A DNA stretch of 34,362 bases, taken from a virus (taxonomy: Duplodnaviria > Caudoviricetes). Made by a program: the position numbers and the translations under genes. Below the pieces are notes generated by a model, which saw only the letters and a list, made by a program, of their open reading frames with translations, was not told the DNA's origin and did not search any database. Of this stretch, positions 2,423-33,742 are shown in pieces. How positions within the stretch are numbered: position 1 is the first letter of the stretch; every line of letters starts with the position of its first letter. The stretch covers positions 1 to 34,362 of the IMG/VR virus record IMGVR_UViG_3300025356_000005. The stretch is one strand, 5' to 3'.

Positions 2423-2779
2423 TTAGAGTCCTGCGCTTTTACCCCATTGTTGCATCGTATTCTGCCAGTATTGAGGAGCAAGTCCGGCGGAAGATTGCTG
2501 TTGAATCTGCTCACGGGCAGCAGCTCCGGCAGGATTAGTCATCTTCTCTAGTTCTTTGCTCTTGTACGCATTAATAGCAGCTTGCTGGCTTGCTTGATTC
2601 AGCGCACCTTGCGGCCCATAAATATCAGTAACTTGTGACTCAATTGGTTGAGAAGATCGAGCAATATCAAGTGCGTTCTGCCTAGCTAGTGCCTGTTGAC
2701 CCGCTTGCTGTTGCAGGCCAAGCATTGCAACATCAAGCGTGTGATCAGGTGGTGGAGGTGTAGGTACTGAGCCGCCCAT
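2423..2779 (-). CDS. Putative internal virion protein
   Basis: MGGSVPTPPPPD N-terminus typical of podovirus ejection proteins; Q/A-rich. Confidence 0.6.
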   Translation of the reverse strand: MGGSVPTPPPPDHTLDVAMLGLQQQAGQQALARQNALDIARSSQPIESQVTDIYGPQGALNQASQQAAINAYKSKELEKMTNPAGAAAREQIQQQSSAGLAPQYWQNTMQQWGKSAGL

Positions 2780-2781
2780 AA

Positions 2782-3168
2782 TTAAGCAGGAGAATATACT
2801 TCTCTTTTTAACCTGACAAGCCCTAACTTATTCATTGTTTCCTCTGGGAAGTTCATACGATGCGTATCCGTTTCTAATGGTACTCCAATATAACTAACCC
2901 TTCCAGAAAGCTGTGTGTGGGTTCTCCAATCATTCATAACTTGAATTACATCCCTTGGCCTTGTTAATGCCGGATGGAAGGCTGGATAAATGGTTGGAAT
3001 ATGGACGTGATCGCTGTATCCAAAGCAAATATCATCCCGATAGTGTGCGTAAACATTAATATTGGGATTTGCAATTATTTCATGATCAAATGACTTAGCA
3101 AATGTCTGTAGTTGTTGAAACTCTTGTGTATTTGGTGCGATGTATTTGTAATTAATGGATGAACGCAT
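2782..3168 (-). CDS. Possible GNAT-fold protein (T7 gp13-like position)
   Basis: 128 aa alpha/beta pattern ending MNKLGLVRL, resembling the GNAT terminal xxLGF motif. Sits between the nozzle and ejection genes, where T7-like phages encode gp13. Confidence 0.4.
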   Translation of the reverse strand: MRSSINYKYIAPNTQEFQQLQTFAKSFDHEIIANPNINVYAHYRDDICFGYSDHVHIPTIYPAFHPALTRPRDVIQVMNDWRTHTQLSGRVSYIGVPLETDTHRMNFPEETMNKLGLVRLKREVYSPA

Positions 3169-3171
3169 AGA

Positions 3172-3417
3172 TTATGTTCCTATAGCGACATTTACCCCAT
3201 TGGCAAGCAATGATTGGTTAGTATTTGCTTGTTGCGAGATAATTTGTTGCCGGACAGATGAATTCCCACACACAACGCATGGTAAGCAGTCGCCGCTAGT
3301 GTTGGAATCAATTGGAATGCTGGAATAAAGAGGAATAACGCCATCATTTCCAAACGGAGACATATACAGGTTTGGAAAGTCTGTTACAGGAGTAGCGGCT
3401 TGGGAAATAGTAGGCAT
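3172..3417 (-). CDS. Small hypothetical virion-associated protein with CLPCVVC motif
   Basis: 81 aa ORF coupled (TAATATG) to the nozzle gene. Confidence 0.6.
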   Translation of the reverse strand: MPTISQAATPVTDFPNLYMSPFGNDGVIPLYSSIPIDSNTSGDCLPCVVCGNSSVRQQIISQQANTNQSLLANGVNVAIGT

Positions 3418-20097: not shown

Positions 20098-20778
20098 TTA
20101 GCAATTACCTAATTGGTGGTCAACATTATTTTTAACATTAAGAAGATTTTCTTTCATTATCTTAATACGATATTCATTTGGAATTGTTGTCAGGTGAGCC
20201 AAAAAACAATTCTCATTCCAAGGAACAGCTATTTCACGCTCTTCGTTTACCCTGTATTTCTTTGCTATCTCTGGAACTGAATTAAGATAATTCCTTGGAA
20301 GCACATGAATAAGCTCAGGGTTGGAATCTAGTATAAAGTTTAATGTCCTCTGCTCTTGCTCTGAATGATCAAGGAACATCTTTGATCCAAACTGGACAAA
20401 CTCTTCATAGAGATCCTTTAGCTTGCTTGTATTGTATAAAACAAAGTTTCCGGCAGAGATTGTCGTGCAATCTATCCAGTCCAGAGATGCGCTGAACGGC
20501 TTGTCTGAGTCCCTGAAGTCATCGATCTCATAATTGAAATTGGTAATGAAAGCGTCTGCATCTATCCACATTACGGCATCGTAATCCCCGACATGATCAA
20601 ATGCGGCTATTGCCCTTTCAAATCCTAATCTCCTTCCAAACAATTGATGGTCATATCCAAGAGGGATAGATTTCAATTCGTACCCATGATATTTGCAGTA
20701 CGCAACTTTTGAAGGCATGGATGCACTTAGAACACTATACATTTCAGCACTAGATCCTGTAAGTAAAAGCGTTTTCAT
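20098..20778 (-). CDS. Glycosyltransferase, GT34 (GMA12/MNN10)-like
   Basis: K..YC..HGY, YDAVMWIDAD (DxD), ISAGNFV, EQ..L and FLAH motifs. Confidence 0.75.
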   Translation of the reverse strand: MKTLLLTGSSAEMYSVLSASMPSKVAYCKYHGYELKSIPLGYDHQLFGRRLGFERAIAAFDHVGDYDAVMWIDADAFITNFNYEIDDFRDSDKPFSASLDWIDCTTISAGNFVLYNTSKLKDLYEEFVQFGSKMFLDHSEQEQRTLNFILDSNPELIHVLPRNYLNSVPEIAKKYRVNEEREIAVPWNENCFLAHLTTIPNEYRIKIMKENLLNVKNNVDHQLGNC

Positions 20779-21497
20779 TTTGGAAGTTCTCCATTAAAGC
20801 TATACCAAGCACCTTCGTATTCAACAATGCTATTGGGAGCCGGAGTGAATACCTCTTGTATTAGAGGTTTTCTGAGTGCTGCGGCTATCCAAAACGAGCT
20901 AGATTGATTGCCAACAAATAGATCCGCACCTTGGATTGCCTTTGCAACATCTAGGCAGCTTTCTGTTGGGTAATACTCAATGTTTCCAATCTTTTCACAA
21001 AAGTCTTCGTACTCTTGTTTTGTCCCGCAAAACAAACTTTGCTTTCTATAGCGATCTAAAACCTTATCCCAACGGAAATTATGGTTTCTGTAGCGAGGTG
21101 TCCTGTTAAAAATAACACGCCCTTTTGTTAACACATCCGGCTCAACCTTTATCCAAGGCTCTGTTATCTCAAGATGTCCAGTTTTTCTCTGTACAATGTT
21201 AAGATACCTAGCTTGTGCATCAAGCAATGAAACATTATCTTCATAGCACTCGCGCCAAGGAGACATATCACAATCAATAGGCCCAACAGAGCAATCAAAA
21301 CATACATTAATCCCTTGGCTCTTGAGTAGCGGCTCAATGGAATCATATTTGAAACCCCGCATAGGAGCCATCCATGACTCGTCTTGTATTAGCAGCTTTG
21401 TGCCTCCTAGCCTCTGGTATGAAGGCAAGAAGGCAATGATGTCACCAATATGACCAGTATGCCTAAATACTTTTCCCTTCTGGAATGGATTTGTCAT
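20775..21497 (-). CDS. Glycosyltransferase, GT9 (heptosyltransferase RfaF/WaaF)-like GT-B fold
   Basis: G.IGD...LP N-terminus and L.....I..ADLFVGNQSS...IAAAL..P C-terminal motif. Confidence 0.75.
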   Translation of the reverse strand: MTNPFQKGKVFRHTGHIGDIIAFLPSYQRLGGTKLLIQDESWMAPMRGFKYDSIEPLLKSQGINVCFDCSVGPIDCDMSPWRECYEDNVSLLDAQARYLNIVQRKTGHLEITEPWIKVEPDVLTKGRVIFNRTPRYRNHNFRWDKVLDRYRKQSLFCGTKQEYEDFCEKIGNIEYYPTESCLDVAKAIQGADLFVGNQSSSFWIAAALRKPLIQEVFTPAPNSIVEYEGAWYSFNGELPK

Positions 21498-28184: not shown

Positions 28185-28673
28185 TTAAGGCTGAAACGTC
28201 CAGTTACATTTTGGGCAGGTGCATGATTTCTTGTCAGAAATTAGCTTTTCATCCTCGTTTACATCAATTTCATTAGGAGAACCTATCAATTCTGCCAATT
28301 CTTGATTAGTAAACCCGATTACAGAAACATCATATTTACATTCGTTTAGCTCATCAACTTCTACTGATAACATATCGAAATCCCACGTTGCAAGATTAGA
28401 CATATTGTTAACTGTAATTCTGAAAGCCTTTATCTGATGATCGGTCATGTCATCAGCCAACATTACTGGGACTGTTTTTAATCCTAGCTTTTTAGCCGCC
28501 TTAAATCTCAAATGACCATCAACAATTAAACCATCGCTTTTCGCTATGATTGGAACCCTAAATCCAAATTCTTTTATTGCTGCGGCTATCTTGTCAACAG
28601 CGTGATCGTTTTTTCGTGGGTTTCTTGCGTATTGAATAAATTTATCTAGAGGCCAGTTTTCTATTTTTTGCAT
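28185..28673 (-). CDS. ParB/Sulfiredoxin N-terminal domain protein with C-terminal Zn ribbon
   Basis: YARNPRKND.AV..I..FGFRVPI....IVDGHLR..AA..LG; ends CTCPKC. Confidence 0.85.
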   Translation of the reverse strand: MQKIENWPLDKFIQYARNPRKNDHAVDKIAAAIKEFGFRVPIIAKSDGLIVDGHLRFKAAKKLGLKTVPVMLADDMTDHQIKAFRITVNNMSNLATWDFDMLSVEVDELNECKYDVSVIGFTNQELAELIGSPNEIDVNEDEKLISDKKSCTCPKCNWTFQP

Positions 28674-28963
28674 ATAATTCTTTTAATACATATTTCGTAG
28701 TTTGCTGTCTTGTTCTCAAAACATTGTTCCAAAATAAGAAATTTATATCAACTGGAATAAACTCTGTATTCTGCCCCCGTGATAATTCTGGTAACAGGGG
28801 TAAAAAGGAATGTCGATTTGTCCCTCTGGTAGTAGATGACCCCGCCCCCTATCTCGCAGGAAGTCCCGATTGGGGACTTGTCAGGGGCGAGGAACCTTTG
28901 AAGAAACCCAAGTGCCGATCCTCCTTGTTTCTGCGACTCAAGGGGAGAAGGCGGTCGAGGGTA

Positions 28964-28989
28964 TAAAAGAAACCCCCAGAGGGGATTCC
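28964..28989 (-). terminator. Intrinsic terminator-like hairpin for a short leftward transcript
   Basis: GGAATCCCC-TCT-GGGGGTTTC-TTTTA on the minus strand, about 30-55 nt below the leftward promoter. Confidence 0.45.
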
Positions 28990-29024
28990 CAACTCCTTCC
29001 ACGCTTGGTGGATGAGATAATGAA

Positions 29025-29062
29025 AATATATTGTTGACACTTTGATGCGTCAATAGCATATT
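29025..29062. promoter_or_regulatory. Overlapping divergent sigma70-type promoters
   Basis: Plus: TTGACA (29034-39)-17-CATATT (29057-62). Minus: TTGACG (29053-48)-17-TATATT (29030-25). The two -35 boxes form a TTGAC...GTCAA inverted repeat. Confidence 0.65.
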
Positions 29063-29068
29063 CACCGC

Positions 29069-29300
29069 ATCTGAATGATTGCGCCATTCTGATCCCATAA
29101 TTTTCCCCAAAGAAACAAAGGGCCGTCGAGTGGCGCATCACTTGGCGGCCCTTGCCCGTTATAGCAAGTGAGGCTAGTCGTGAATGCGTACCACGAAAGC
29201 CAACAACAACGGCTTTGGAGAATCAAAACTCCTTACCCGATGAGAGAGAAGGGAAACACCCTGCATCCATTTCGGGGTGCAGTAGTTTCTTTTCTTTTCT
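29069..29300 (+). ncRNA. Putative structured non-coding RNA (~230 nt)
   Basis: Follows the plus-strand promoter. Hairpins at 29069-29093 and 29118-29153 have complementary loops, further hairpins follow, and it ends in a CTGCATCC/GGGTGCAG stem plus T-rich run. G-T pairs favour the plus strand. Confidence 0.55.
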
Positions 29301-29405
29301 GACAGGCTTTCCTACTTGAGTGGTGGGGGGATCAGGGGGGAATTTGCTTTACTCTTTTGTATTTCTTTACTGCTGGTGCGGCTGGTAAAGAATACATCCA
29401 TGTAC

Positions 29406-29475
29406 TTCAATTGAAATTATACCCAATAAGGTATATACAGGTGTATAATTAGGTATAAACACCCTATCGGGTGTA
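29406..29475. repeat. Cluster of short palindromes
   Basis: TTCAATTGAA (29406-15), TATACC-CAATAA-GGTATA (29418-35), TATAC-AGGT-GTATA (29434-47), ACACCC-TATC-GGGTGT (29459-74). Confidence 0.75.
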
Positions 29476-29477
29476 AA

Positions 29478-31406
29478 TCAGCAACCGCATCCAAACGGCG
29501 ATCTTCCAGCGTACTTGTATGGAAATCCATGACCTATTGCATCTGGCAATCCGGCAAGGTAAGTATCAACATCGTATATCCAGTTTCCAACATCGATTCC
29601 ATTATCCTGCCTATAGGCCGCAACAGCGCGATACAAGTCCTCAAGGTCAACGCCAGTTATCCTGACGTTTCCCTCACAGTAATTCCACCCGCTGACAGGT
29701 ATGTTCGTGCCATTAAGGTTCTGCGCCCACAAAAACGAGTCCACATCGGTCTGGACATATCCGGCAGGGATTAGCAGGGCATTGACACGAAACTCAGCTA
29801 CAGCGGCGTATAGATCCTCCCTAGTGCCAGCGCAGATGCGGTATGCGTTTCTTGACATTCCTTCAATGTATGGAGATGGCTGCATATAGAACCAAGGGCA
29901 GATCGGTTGATCGTCTGGAGGGTTGGTAGGTGGAACATAGGGAGGCGATGGCGGAGCCGGAGGAGGCACAGGAGGCTGACATCCGTATGCCGGACGCTTC
30001 TTGTTCTGGAATATATCCATGATCTCTTGATCGCTCAATGCACGCTGAAAAATTCCAACCTCATCGATTGACCCAGAGAATGCCGTCTCAAATGTGTCAG
30101 ACTTACCAATGGAAAGCGTCTTGCGACCAGAATCCGAAATTGCAGTAGATATGTCTTGTATGGCTCTCTGACCATCAACATAAAACCTTACTTTCCTATC
30201 CTCATAAGCATCACAAACACCGCATACAAAATGCCAGTCAGTTGGATTTGATATATTGGATATGGATAATCCAGCTCCATTTTCAACCCCTAATGCAAAT
30301 TCTCCTGATCCATAGACAAACAAGTAATTCCATCCAATGTTTGCTTCCCTAGTAAGAATGACTGATCCAACATCTGTTGACATCTTCATCCAGAAATAAA
30401 TCGTAAACTGCTTTAGGGTTGGAAAGTTGTTGAAAATCAGCCCTTGATATGGAGGGTTTGCTGGATTGGAAAAGACCGCTGCGTTGTTTATTATGCCTTC
30501 GCCTGATGCAATAGGCCCATTAAACTCGGTAAGATTAAAAACTCCAGTAATGTCATTCCTACTGCCGGATGTCTCGTCCATCGTGTAGTAGGCATAGATC
30601 CCATTCGTGCAGTCAGTATAAACAGCCACATTCTTACTAACAGATGGTTGAGTGTAATTCGTATCTGTTATTGTTGCCGTAACAACATAGTTTCCAATCT
30701 GGTGGATTGGTGTCGTGCTGCTGTTGTATCTCAATTGATACGATACTCCTGCCGGAATTGTTGTTACAATAGGAGTTACTTGCTTGTTGTTGAAGTAATA
30801 CCTGTCAGGGATGTCTATGCTGATAGATGCTTCTGCTTGTACTATAGAAGCATCACAAGAAGATTTAATCGTTGGGTAAAGATTAAGTGTGGCTACAACA
30901 TGATACTTACCAACATTAGTAGGAGGAGTTGTGCTACCATTGTATGTTACTAAATAATCTAAACCATCAGGATTAGTAGTTACTGAAATAGCAAGAGGGT
31001 TCCCTGTCCATGTCTGAATACTATTTGCAGTTACTAAAATTGACCACGATAATGGCGATGAATTAAGAGGAATATCTGATGTTAAAGTTGCAGTAATACC
31101 ACCATTATTTCCTCCATTGCTTGCTGCATAAACATTAAAAGTTTCACCAGTACCAAGTGATGTTGAATATGAAAAGTTATGCGACCCATTACGCCTTCCA
31201 ACTGGGTTGTCATACTCTGGTGGAACAAAAAATGGAAATTCATCTGCTTGGTATGCTGTAGATCCATCAAATGAAACATCATCATCTACAATCCCAGAAA
31301 TATTTATATTTGCACTTACTGCTGTGTAGTTTGTAAATGAACTAATCAAACTGAATGGGCCATATGCACCTGCATATGAAGCTGAAATTGGATAAGAGAA
31401 GGCCAT
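29478..31406 (-). CDS. Multidomain adhesin-like protein: 2 MBG-type domains, LamG, Pro-rich linker, duplicated C-terminal domain
   Basis: TYNGSTTPPTNVG.Y.V.AT MBG-type repeats; FSGSIDEVGIF.RALS..EI LamG end; PPVPPPAPPSPP linker. Confidence 0.75.
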   Translation of the reverse strand: MAFSYPISASYAGAYGPFSLISSFTNYTAVSANINISGIVDDDVSFDGSTAYQADEFPFFVPPEYDNPVGRRNGSHNFSYSTSLGTGETFNVYAASNGGNNGGITATLTSDIPLNSSPLSWSILVTANSIQTWTGNPLAISVTTNPDGLDYLVTYNGSTTPPTNVGKYHVVATLNLYPTIKSSCDASIVQAEASISIDIPDRYYFNNKQVTPIVTTIPAGVSYQLRYNSSTTPIHQIGNYVVTATITDTNYTQPSVSKNVAVYTDCTNGIYAYYTMDETSGSRNDITGVFNLTEFNGPIASGEGIINNAAVFSNPANPPYQGLIFNNFPTLKQFTIYFWMKMSTDVGSVILTREANIGWNYLFVYGSGEFALGVENGAGLSISNISNPTDWHFVCGVCDAYEDRKVRFYVDGQRAIQDISTAISDSGRKTLSIGKSDTFETAFSGSIDEVGIFQRALSDQEIMDIFQNKKRPAYGCQPPVPPPAPPSPPYVPPTNPPDDQPICPWFYMQPSPYIEGMSRNAYRICAGTREDLYAAVAEFRVNALLIPAGYVQTDVDSFLWAQNLNGTNIPVSGWNYCEGNVRITGVDLEDLYRAVAAYRQDNGIDVGNWIYDVDTYLAGLPDAIGHGFPYKYAGRSPFGCGC

Positions 31407-31450: not shown

Positions 31451-31526
31451 TGGCTACGGAGGTAGGGATCGAACCTACAACCAGCAGATCCAAATTCTGC
31501 TGCGCTACCAATTGCGCCACTCCGTA
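31451..31526 (-). tRNA. tRNA-Gln (anticodon UUG), CCA encoded
   Basis: TACGGAG TG GCGC AATTGGTA GCGC A GCAGA ATTTGGA TCTGC TGGTT GTAGG TTCGATC CCTAC CTCCGTA G CCA: 76-nt cloverleaf with U1-A72 and G73. Confidence 0.93.
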
Positions 31527-31584: not shown

Positions 31585-33477
31585 CTAGCTTTCAGAAAAG
31601 TCCATAAACTCCATCTTGTCAACGAGGCTCTGGATCTCCCTACGATTATGCGTAGGTTCCGGCTTGACTTCATTCATCGTCGCAATAGCACCACCGCGCT
31701 GCCGCATCAGGTAGACTAGCATGGACAGGGAATCCAGCTCATCCGGCGACTTGCTCCTAGTACGCTTGCAGTACTCACCCTTGCTCTCCACACGCACCAT
31801 GCCCTTGCCCTTCTGCTTGTAGCGACGAGCGGTAGCCTGCCGTACCAGCTCCTCGTTCCTGAACGATGGCGAGATCTTCAGGTACTCAAACTCAAGATAC
31901 TTTGCCAGACCAAAGATCAGCTCGGTAACTACGCCATTATACAGCTCGTTGGCACGCTGTGAATCGTCACCAAGGATGTGCGTCTCACTTGCAGCCCATG
32001 AGTAGTTCACTCCCATGACCTCACGACCAAACAACGAACACAAGCTATCGTGGATACCCGCGCCGTTTCCTGTACGATCCACGCATAGCCAGTTGGCTCC
32101 AATCTTCATGACCTTGGCAAAGTTGATAATTGCCTGCGTTTGCTCCAGCGTTGCCTTCTTAGGGAATGGAATCTGGGAGTCGAGCTGTAGCACGACTCTG
32201 GGAGCCTTGAAGCTGATGAACTGACCGCTTTGCGGTGTCCACCCATCACACAGGCCAAAACGCCCGTAGGAACACATGACCTGATCGTTACCCTCCAGAG
32301 CCAAGTCAAACGCTGCCAGCGGCACTACAGGCCCGATAAAACGCACCGTCCCTATGGCGTTGTCCATCATCGCCGGAGTGATAATCCCCATCGCCTGCCC
32401 CTCCTCTGGGAACCACCCACGAGCCATCGTCATTGCCTCCGCTGTCCGGCCCCTACTCATGTACCCCATGAATCCCTGATACGTCTGCAATCCGGCGTAC
32501 ACGATACGTTTTTCAATCACGTTCTCGCATCTTGCCGCATCTAGCCGCAAAACGTGATAGCCTTCCCGCGACTCCCACTCAAAGTCATCCTCGCAGTCAA
32601 TCGATCCCCAGCCGTCAACAGGCTCACACCTCTGACCAAATGCGCTAGTCCTGTCCTTAGGGTTACTAGCTCCAAAGATCTTAATGTGTCCTGCATATTG
32701 CTTGCTATCGGAAGTAGACAAGATGTTGTTGATGCCCTCCCAGACTCCAGACGGGATCTCTTCGGCTTCGTCCAGTACGACATGGGTACGCGATAGCCTT
32801 CCCCACAAATGATGCTCCTGACCATATCGAGGTGTCGGGTGATAGCCTCGGAGTGTACCATGTCCAGATTCTCCCTTTGGTATAGCCACAAGCTGGATTC
32901 CGTTCTTGCTGTCGCTATTCACCTGAATGCTAGTCGCTTTGTCTGTCTGATCTGTCAGCGGACGCACCAGAGCCGTACGATGGAATGTCTTAATGTTGGC
33001 GAAGATATTCCTCTCAGCGTGTTCACGGGTGAGCGATATGACTTTGATGCTGGTGTACGCCGGATCTCTCCACCAATCCAAGTAGAACCATGCACCGCCA
33101 GAAAACGATTTGCCGCAGGCTCCAGCTCCCATAACCATTAGCTGGTCATGCTCAAATAAGCATCTCCATGTGTCTCTTCCAAACCTCGGCCTCCAGTCGT
33201 AGACCGCACTACCCCAGAGGACGGTGGCTCCGGCCTCAAACTGATTATTGTCTAGCAGGTGTTGGACATACTGCCGGACGATTGATTCAGCTATCGGTAC
33301 ATTCAGCTCAGAGATCTGGATCTGATTGTTGATCGTGATTGTCTTGAGAATGTACTCGGCAGCGTACAGGATGCCCTTCTCCTCATCGCGATCTGCCGCC
33401 TCTCGGATGTTTAAGGCGTGCTGATGGAAAATCTTCTGACTTAATGGTGGCGTGATTCGATAGCCGGATTCATTCAT
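31585..33477 (-). CDS. terL: Terminase large subunit
   Basis: Walker A GAGACGKS, Walker B VVLDEAE, ASNP coupling motif, RNase H-like nuclease AFDLA..G.D and SPD.LD. Confidence 0.92.
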   Translation of the reverse strand: MNESGYRITPPLSQKIFHQHALNIREAADRDEEKGILYAAEYILKTITINNQIQISELNVPIAESIVRQYVQHLLDNNQFEAGATVLWGSAVYDWRPRFGRDTWRCLFEHDQLMVMGAGACGKSFSGGAWFYLDWWRDPAYTSIKVISLTREHAERNIFANIKTFHRTALVRPLTDQTDKATSIQVNSDSKNGIQLVAIPKGESGHGTLRGYHPTPRYGQEHHLWGRLSRTHVVLDEAEEIPSGVWEGINNILSTSDSKQYAGHIKIFGASNPKDRTSAFGQRCEPVDGWGSIDCEDDFEWESREGYHVLRLDAARCENVIEKRIVYAGLQTYQGFMGYMSRGRTAEAMTMARGWFPEEGQAMGIITPAMMDNAIGTVRFIGPVVPLAAFDLALEGNDQVMCSYGRFGLCDGWTPQSGQFISFKAPRVVLQLDSQIPFPKKATLEQTQAIINFAKVMKIGANWLCVDRTGNGAGIHDSLCSLFGREVMGVNYSWAASETHILGDDSQRANELYNGVVTELIFGLAKYLEFEYLKISPSFRNEELVRQATARRYKQKGKGMVRVESKGEYCKRTRSKSPDELDSLSMLVYLMRQRGGAIATMNEVKPEPTHNRREIQSLVDKMEFMDFSES

Positions 33478-33517: not shown

Positions 33518-33742
33518 ATGTATAACCAATACGATCAGCTCCAAAGTCATACCTACGTTGAGGCTACCAAGCTCGCAGCCGCCGGAGAGGAGTTCTCTCA
33601 CCTTATTAAGTTAATGACTCCAGACTATGCGATGCGATTAAAGATCTTTGTACAAAGCCTGCCGGAGTCAATTCAGTCGAAGACGATCTATGGTAGGGCG
33701 CACGCAAGGGCGCAGGCCAAGCCAGCGAAGTCTAAACGTTAA
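33518..33742 (+). CDS. Hypothetical protein, the only credible plus-strand gene
   Basis: 74 aa, fills the gap divergently from terL, ACCATG start, basic C-terminus. Confidence 0.6.
   Translation: MYNQYDQLQSHTYVEATKLAAAGEEFSHLIKLMTPDYAMRLKIFVQSLPESIQSKTIYGRAHARAQAKPAKSKR

Follow-up and report, generated by a model that had tools for sequence, protein, structure and literature searches.

A putative mobile non-coding RNA cassette with covarying kissing loops beside the large terminase gene of two phage groups

In the case of the P4 CI and P1 c4 RNAs, the regulator and its complementary target are found in one promoter-proximal transcript, and in the phi29 pRNA the complementary loops belong to one three-way-junction domain closed by a 5′/3′ helix. 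In the guanidine-IV riboswitch (GGAM-1/mepA), the loop of a 5′ hairpin kisses the loop of a terminator hairpin, and this kiss competes with the completion of the terminator stem during transcription (PMC7736828, PMC11611296). In the zipper-type attenuator cATT of plasmid pLS20, the 3′ strand of an upstream hairpin anneals to the 5′ stem as well as the loop of a terminator (PMC13401043). ColE1 RNA II and the mitochondrial CSBII RNA form R-loops through a G tract, the RNA being kept hybridised to the template (PMC6317783), and abiF-motif RNA neutralises the AbiF toxin in trans (PMC12373285).

The window analysed, a stretch of 34,362 nucleotides, corresponds to a whole linear virus record derived from freshwater metagenomes, a truncated contig with a CheckV completeness of 55% and with nearly all genes on the − strand. 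The RNA element, present as a single copy, is located in an 800-nt gap between a LamG/MBG-domain gene (29478–31406, − strand), which converges on the RNA 3′ end and is part of a variable context, and a ParB N-terminal-domain gene (28185–28673, − strand). This gap lies between the large terminase gene (31585–33477, − strand) and a gene of 802 aa, taken as the portal gene from its position and size, for which the family search returned no match. The large terminase had no family match of its own, only a weak one (E 0.22), and was named as such on the basis of the Walker A/B motifs and the acidic motifs of nuclease type that its alignment shows, which we take to be a large-terminase signature, and of its 20% identity to a PHROG-confirmed large terminase. 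A tRNA with anticodon UUG (Gln; 31454–31526, − strand) is found directly behind the terminase gene. Additionally, a 74-aa ORF that runs against the late genes (33518–33742, + strand) is kept between the terminase genes in both phage groups considered below and lies directly behind the RNA in L100. A second, hairpin-rich non-coding block (28830–28965, − strand) follows a divergent promoter; it is absent in L004, is present in L103, L120, L148 and abundant sister contigs with compensatory hairpin changes, and bears a sub-threshold resemblance to DUF3800-IX (20 bits versus a cut-off of 36.8). Four metagenome DNA runs showed only the co-occurrence of sister variants.

A first-pass annotation had proposed, at 29069–29300, a structured RNA with two kissing hairpins, and both hairpins were found where it had placed them. 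Hairpin 1 (29073–29089) carries the loop AUUGCGC (29078–29084), hairpin 2 (29118–29153) has 15 bp and the loop GCGCAU (29133–29138), and the two loops are complementary through five Watson–Crick pairs. The extension that had also been suggested exists as complementarity of 7–10 bp (29080–29089 with 29128–29137), but not as a longer kiss, since it needs stem bases and is thus an alternative fold. The orientation opposite to the late operon was supported, the RNA gene being on the + strand and antisense to the portal operon. The + strand is favoured as the RNA strand by folding z-scores and G-U pairs: the region 29060–29310 folds with a z-score of −4.46 on this strand, the two-hairpin part reaches −3.39 on the + strand versus −0.63 on the − strand, and many G-U pairs are found on the + strand of the 40-row alignment. 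As for the promoter and the terminator-like end announced for the locus, the scans alone did not exceed chance (three promoters found versus 2.0 expected, two terminators versus 1.1 expected), but conserved boxes in the homologues, namely TTGAC and a −10 box separated by a freely varying spacer, support the promoter. This sigma-70-type promoter-like site (TTGACA, 17 nt, CATATT; 29034–29062, + strand; 10/12 consensus match) predicts a start near 29068–29069, and the RNA is likely transcribed from it. An overlapping divergent promoter-like site (29025–29053, − strand) faces the second hairpin block, the ParB-N gene and the portal operon, and a similar palindromic TTGAC..GTCAA divergent site is present in L009, L010, L011 and L014.

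The conserved unit, about 29034–29370, is larger than the interval annotated before, and all of its predicted hairpins are on the + strand. Behind the promoter come a kissing head that some copies lack (P1/P2), a core that also covaries (P3/P4), hairpins that vary, and a G6-N-G6 tract that is almost invariant and flanked by pyrimidines. P1 (29070–29092) has a near-invariant stem and a variable loop 1, with 98% of cells paired, and the terminator-shaped P2, which spans hairpin 2, shows two-sided change in 6/11 lower-stem pairs. Between them lies a linker of roughly 25–50 nt, rich in A, C and U and with at most a small optional hairpin, which is long enough for an intramolecular kiss. P3 (29172–29201) contains an internal loop and a conserved apical loop for which a UNCG-like reading is possible, with 99.6% of cells paired and two-sided change in 8/10 pairs, and P4 (29210–29239) is built of 3 bp, a 4x4 internal loop, 4 bp and a conserved AAYCAAAA loop. 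They are followed by P5 (29246–29299), a variable hairpin with a purine-rich 5′ arm and a U-rich, terminator-like 3′ arm, and by a segment (29308–29370) with the P6 hairpin, the G6-ATCA-G6 tract (29325–29340), whose G runs are invariant or nearly so, and a pyrimidine-rich tail.

Homologues were collected with a pattern of the 3′ core that is blind to the loops, which returned 103 viral loci; 99 were kept, L166 being a chance match and L113, L116 and L128 being missed by the regex. The kissing head was found in 85 of these 99 loci and was missing in 14, one of them cut off, leaving 13 full-length core-bearing loci without it. A separate terminase search yielded 80 group-1 loci, with the full element in eight non-identical ones. 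In 40 aligned non-redundant homologues, all six pairs of the loop–loop helix showed two-sided change, in agreement with the kissing contact proposed previously, and 92.5% of its cells were paired compared with 38–44% in slid controls. The whole-structure score was reached by none of 500 shuffles, a test that can be inflated by relatedness; a single inherited change, however, cannot give rise to 15 different complementary codes. The 40 rows comprise 16 distinct loop pairs, 15 of which are complementary, one of these being misaligned in the alignment (A2). When distinct loop pairs were picked automatically, 15/17 had at least 5 bp, whereas permutation gave a mean of 2.7 and a maximum of 11 in 10,000; the two exceptions were a mis-picked loop (L155) and a real mismatch (L147, equal to L009), the one natural copy with mismatched loops. 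Loop entropy reached 0.7–1.6 bits per column, and the closing stems are fixed. In the core, 99.7% of P3/P4 cells were paired and 12/17 pairs changed on both sides, although the P4 upper stem, and not the lower one, had been part of the search pattern.

A metagenome scan gave 73 matches, 49 of them model-confirmed and with the same loop pairs, many being contigs of the viral set. A pattern with unspecified loops gave mostly chance matches: 80 of its 120 loci were searched with model R2, which confirmed 18, all of types already known. A generic kissing scan, which found 1–5 mostly chance matches per genome and missed G001 with its mismatched loops, was not used as a count. No conserved reading frame was found in the cassette on either strand (spacings 27/24/23 over three frames), and a small peptide or toxin mRNA was rejected on this ground. 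Sequence comparison shows the folds P1–P4, the loop–loop contact, the + strand, the modular build and the near-invariant, core-tied G tract.

Two phage groups, with terminases that are 20–31% identical, carry the element, and in both it adjoins the large terminase gene at its 3′ end. In group 2, with genomes of 51–55 kb, most flanked core loci lie directly behind the terminase gene and in the same direction as the gene, and in group 1 the element is turned the opposite way; in mapped records of both kinds, the RNA points away from or against the portal operon. The group-2 large terminase gene itself runs opposite to the genes for the small terminase and the portal (G051, 36712–38637). A terminase-anchored group-2 search found the core in 58/80 loci and the head in 46/80, many misses being cut contigs. 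Seven group-2 loci with at least 1.9 kb downstream had no core in the slot: in four a promoter stood directly before the next gene, and in three a different RNA cassette was present. A whole-record search of 20 group-2 fragments, all 8–35% complete, detected no core elsewhere. In group 1, the core was present in 3/50 whole records (plus one weak match, E 0.04), and among complete records the core was found in 0/12 and the head in 3/12. The exact core pattern had no match in 185,579 prokaryotic genomes (GTDB), which is a strict and weak test, and the terminase relatives in three short MAG contigs, which belong to three different phyla, are not usable as host evidence.

The window copy is 88–94% identical to those of L082–L085, which follow a group-2-type terminase end, and L004 carries a different loop code despite a terminase 100% identical to that of the window, which indicates that the cassette moves and is replaced. 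The head was also detected in seven distant group-1 loci (L054, L056, L060, L069, L073, L318, L319), where the loops covary over 6–7 bp, P2 is followed by a canonical U run and another body lies downstream; in three complete group-1 records this distant head lies beside the capsid gene. Where present, the head is always first after the promoter and is exchanged between bodies, and the core also occurs without a head, in which case it stands directly behind the promoter. At least 15 near and five far loop codes were counted, and the same codes recur in both phage groups. Taken by its sequence, the cassette is a mobile, optional non-coding unit that spans about 300 nt next to the large terminase gene and has a covarying loop–loop pair in its 5′ head.

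Further arrangements were observed. In L554 (around 1140–1380), the core and G tract stand under a different, single-hairpin head with a minimal P5. Two further structured bodies of 400 nt occur under the same head (G035 50950–51480, G040 2740–3300, G030 59930–60450), and in these regions the opposite strand carries a conserved structured leader that precedes the capsid gene. Alternative cassettes in the terminase 3′ slot (L016:12230–12600, L024, L025, L476, L501, L519–L521, L534) have divergent promoters flanked by an 11–14 nt direct repeat whose sequence differs from phage to phage, such that the 5′ hairpin of a long structured RNA would be paired by a small antisense RNA, and the 3′ end of the L016-type cassette is a T-rich/G6/T-rich tract. 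Intergenic abiF RNA motifs above the Rfam cut-off are found at L026:3426–3462, L318:888–924, L319:2027–2063 and L363:11547–11583; that of L026 lies directly behind a promoter-like site, and they are possible antitoxin decoys.

The RNA had been put forward as novel, and no match of the element to a known Rfam family, c4-type models included, was found. Over the whole window only a tRNA reached the gathering score, within 28600–29550 three sub-threshold matches (E up to 5) fell outside the hairpins, and the homologues likewise gave no match to the element. GenBank phages returned one chance match of 32 nt. No description of this RNA was found in the literature searched, and an IMG/VR candidate catalogue (PMC10690425) could hold parts of it unnamed; the portion of its files that was compared had no match to the RNA motifs or to four record numbers. 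Overall, this is a real, uncatalogued and modular phage ncRNA family, predicted to be transcribed, with a well-supported structure and an inferred function.

Among described RNAs, the guanidine-IV riboswitch shares with this one the pairing of loop 1 with the loop of a terminator-shaped hairpin, which is followed by a U run in 11/40 near rows and in 7/7 distant loci. However, the guanidine-IV loops are highly conserved and bind guanidine, while the loops here vary freely, and guanidine-IV precedes exporter genes, while here a non-coding body of about 200 nt follows, the U run is missing from most near copies, and the genes of group 1 converge on the element. Beyond the body, group 2 often has a DDAH-like gene, but TTGAC follows the tract in 18/30 distinct tails. 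The pairing that defines cATT is for the present RNA a computed one; moreover, cATT zips from a long central stem, whereas in the present RNA most of the linker is unpaired and the pairing would begin between the two loops, and in group 1 no operon lies downstream. With the P4 CI and P1 c4 RNAs there is neither an Rfam match nor a cloverleaf, nor a downstream antirepressor or replication operon. The T4 species 1 RNA (rnaC, AF158101 70908–71046) has complementary loops of 6 nt that differ at one position from a pair frequent in this RNA, but its body is tRNA-like with a T-arm, it is processed from a tRNA cluster, and model R2 does not match it. Like ColE1 RNA II and CSBII, the cassette would be a promoter-driven, structured non-coding transcript that has a G-rich tract, flanked by T-rich sequence, at its end, its promoter being predicted; unlike them, it shows no sequence or model match and no RNA I-type antisense was found for it, and these phages have initiator genes (compared with PMC6317783). 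The RNA would work most like a kissing-loop attenuator, but it belongs to none of the guanidine-IV, cATT, c4/CI and pRNA families.

We consider that the head likely acts as a co-transcriptional, ligand-free kissing-loop attenuator with guanidine-IV/cATT geometry, at a probability of about 0.55. As P2 emerges, loop 1 would capture loop 2 and could zip into the P2 5′ arm, delaying or blocking P2, which would be completed only upon failed or displaced capture; the loop pair would thereby set the amount of polymerase read-through into the body. In computed folds, transcripts ending 0–9 nt past loop 2 formed the loop1:loop2 duplex in 38–39/40 rows compared with 4–6/40 for full transcripts, and a swapped control with loop 2 from another row formed it in 41–71/200. 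Cross-pairing was favoured until about 12 nt past loop 2, after which the two-hairpin state took over; such truncated-transcript folding is a thermodynamic snapshot whose outcome follows partly from the complementarity itself. Additionally, the P1 3′ arm can pair with the P2 5′ arm in 91.7% of cells, with no covariation in stems that hardly vary, and the mirror pairing of the arms meets a fixed mismatch in 39/40 rows. A plain terminator switch is weakened by the scarcity of the U run in near rows, a run of at least four U being missing in 29/40, the window copy included; in the latter, the effect might be on pausing or folding more than on termination. In G030 (upstream of 19296, − strand) and G040 (upstream of 24847, − strand), a separate kissing/terminator leader stands directly before a replication initiator gene, with loops that covary between the two.

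Beyond 29300, the conserved tract reads G6-N(2-6)-G5-8 with pyrimidine flanks and was detected by regex in 72/74 distinct core contexts, the two misses being an empty record and a 6-nt-spacer variant. Of 71 viral matches to the tract pattern, 69 had the core upstream and the other two were cut off, and no tract apart from the core was found among them. A reading of the tract as part of initiator genes was rejected with 0/71 matches. By analogy with G-tract primers, and in view of the short group-2 initiators, we weakly favour a G-rich 3′ body that may form an R-loop and prime auxiliary DNA replication: read-through RNA carrying the G6-N-G6 tract would stay hybridised to the template, giving a primer or an opened origin. 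In 6/6 near-complete group-2 records (91–100% for those used), the initiator-like protein is short (128–165 aa), and the G051 copy (20696–21184; homologues in G052–G056) matches only the C-terminal part of initiator profiles. Among the subset of G051 proteins scanned, no helicase, primase or polymerase was seen. However, in G001 the cassette is accompanied by a full DUF1376 initiator and a DnaC-like loader, and full initiators of this kind occur in group-1 phages whether or not they carry the cassette. The cassette is also located next to the terminase and remote from the replication genes, the G tract is absent from the other bodies that this head precedes, part of the tract can base-pair within P6, and GC skew, dominated by gene strand and uninformative, shows no switch at the element. 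The whole chain, a head switch gating a G-rich body that primes replication through an R-loop, is held tentatively, with the odds against it. A long shot beyond this is that RNA-only replication-control cassettes use a phage-specific code of 6–7 nt to gate the primer RNA in cis and between co-infecting genomes, opening a second origin via the G-tract R-loop; if true, this would be a protein-free, plasmid-like copy-control and incompatibility system traded between unrelated phages.

For the body, an anti-defence decoy role, rather unlikely in itself, is nearly as likely as the primer role and is its main rival. Here, early RNAs would mimic host antitoxin or defence ncRNAs and sequester the proteins that bind these, with head and body as separate mimics on one promoter. 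The slot or its neighbourhood holds tRNA genes and the stand-alone abiF motifs, the divergent block of the window has its DUF3800-IX resemblance, the conserved P3/P4 loops may resemble protein-binding sites, and the cassette is dispensable, swappable and modular, as counter-defence genes typically are. Nevertheless, this reading leaves the terminator shape of P2 and the G tract unexplained, the prokaryotic genomes yielded no host-encoded copy of the one exact core pattern, and neither tandem repeats as in type III antitoxins nor an Rfam match to a known antitoxin was found. A fixed tertiary contact, in which the kiss compacts and protects a stable RNA without switching, as in the T4 species 1 RNA, and the RNA acts in trans via a protein partner, would agree with the scarce U runs of near copies, the neighbouring T4 loop pair, and variable loops on fixed stems; we regard it as rather unlikely given a head that is always promoter-proximal, optional and exchanged between bodies, a P2 that is a canonical terminator in seven distant loci, and the failure of model R2 to detect rnaC. 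The variety of loop codes, their recurrence across both phage groups and the different code of L004 would suit a self/non-self code, in which head RNAs, short and terminated, would work in trans on the nascent transcripts of sibling or superinfecting genomes that have the same loops, following the logic of P4 CI, P1 c4 and plasmid incompatibility. The alternative slot cassettes, in which a small, divergently transcribed RNA is complementary to the long RNA's 5′ hairpin and the 11–14 nt that the two share change between phages, point the same way, but an intramolecular kiss would hide both loops and no Rfam c4/CI match was obtained; this idea is improbable.

The more speculative proposal of the first-pass annotation, a multimerising packaging RNA acting on the procapsid like phi29 pRNA, was not supported and is very improbable. 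The complementary and covarying loops, the position near the terminase 3′ end in mapped group-1 and group-2 loci and the orientation against the portal operon do recall phi29 pRNA, which also has complementary loops and a gene against the late genes, but the latter accompanies the gp16 ATPase, and this pRNA was predicted in every phage of that kind except one (PMC6266182), and here a two-subunit terminase and an optional RNA are found. The annotation's statement that no small terminase is recognisable holds for the window only, since the contig is truncated: L002 shares the window's large terminase at 100% identity and has, 400 nt upstream of it, a small terminase of 199 aa, in a region beyond the window, and small terminase (TerS) matches were also obtained in L004, G001, G051 and G040, besides the nuclease-type motifs in the large terminase alignment. 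The small terminase in L002, the absence from complete group-1 records (core in 12/12, head in 9/12) and the optional head, missing in the 13 core-bearing loci, leave little room for a pRNA role. Alignment A2 shows tandem hairpins with a variable linker and no conserved closing helix, and an Rfam pRNA match is absent. Inverted DNA sites, such as recombination or operator sites with matching 6-bp cores and no RNA, are scarcely credible: P1 and the P2 tip are near reverse complements as DNA, but the stems are G-U-rich and covary on one strand only, the linker is not inverted in any of 40 rows (by eye), and the upstream promoter is conserved. The annotation's other option, a pseudoknotted regulator or primer RNA, fared better: a structured + strand RNA gene with a covarying loop contact stands, and a regulator or primer role appears plausible.

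The kissing-loop attenuator remains the preferred reading of the head. An uncatalogued ncRNA family of about 100 viral loci with unusually clean tertiary covariation offers a fold that is testable at once, and its roughly 20 natural orthogonal loop pairs could be used directly in building RNA switches. One ligand-driven riboswitch is known in which a 5′ loop kisses the loop of a terminator, and a ligand-free, code-varying and body-swapped form would widen this mechanism. Should the body prime replication or act as a decoy for host defence, an RNA-only tool would be added to phage biology.
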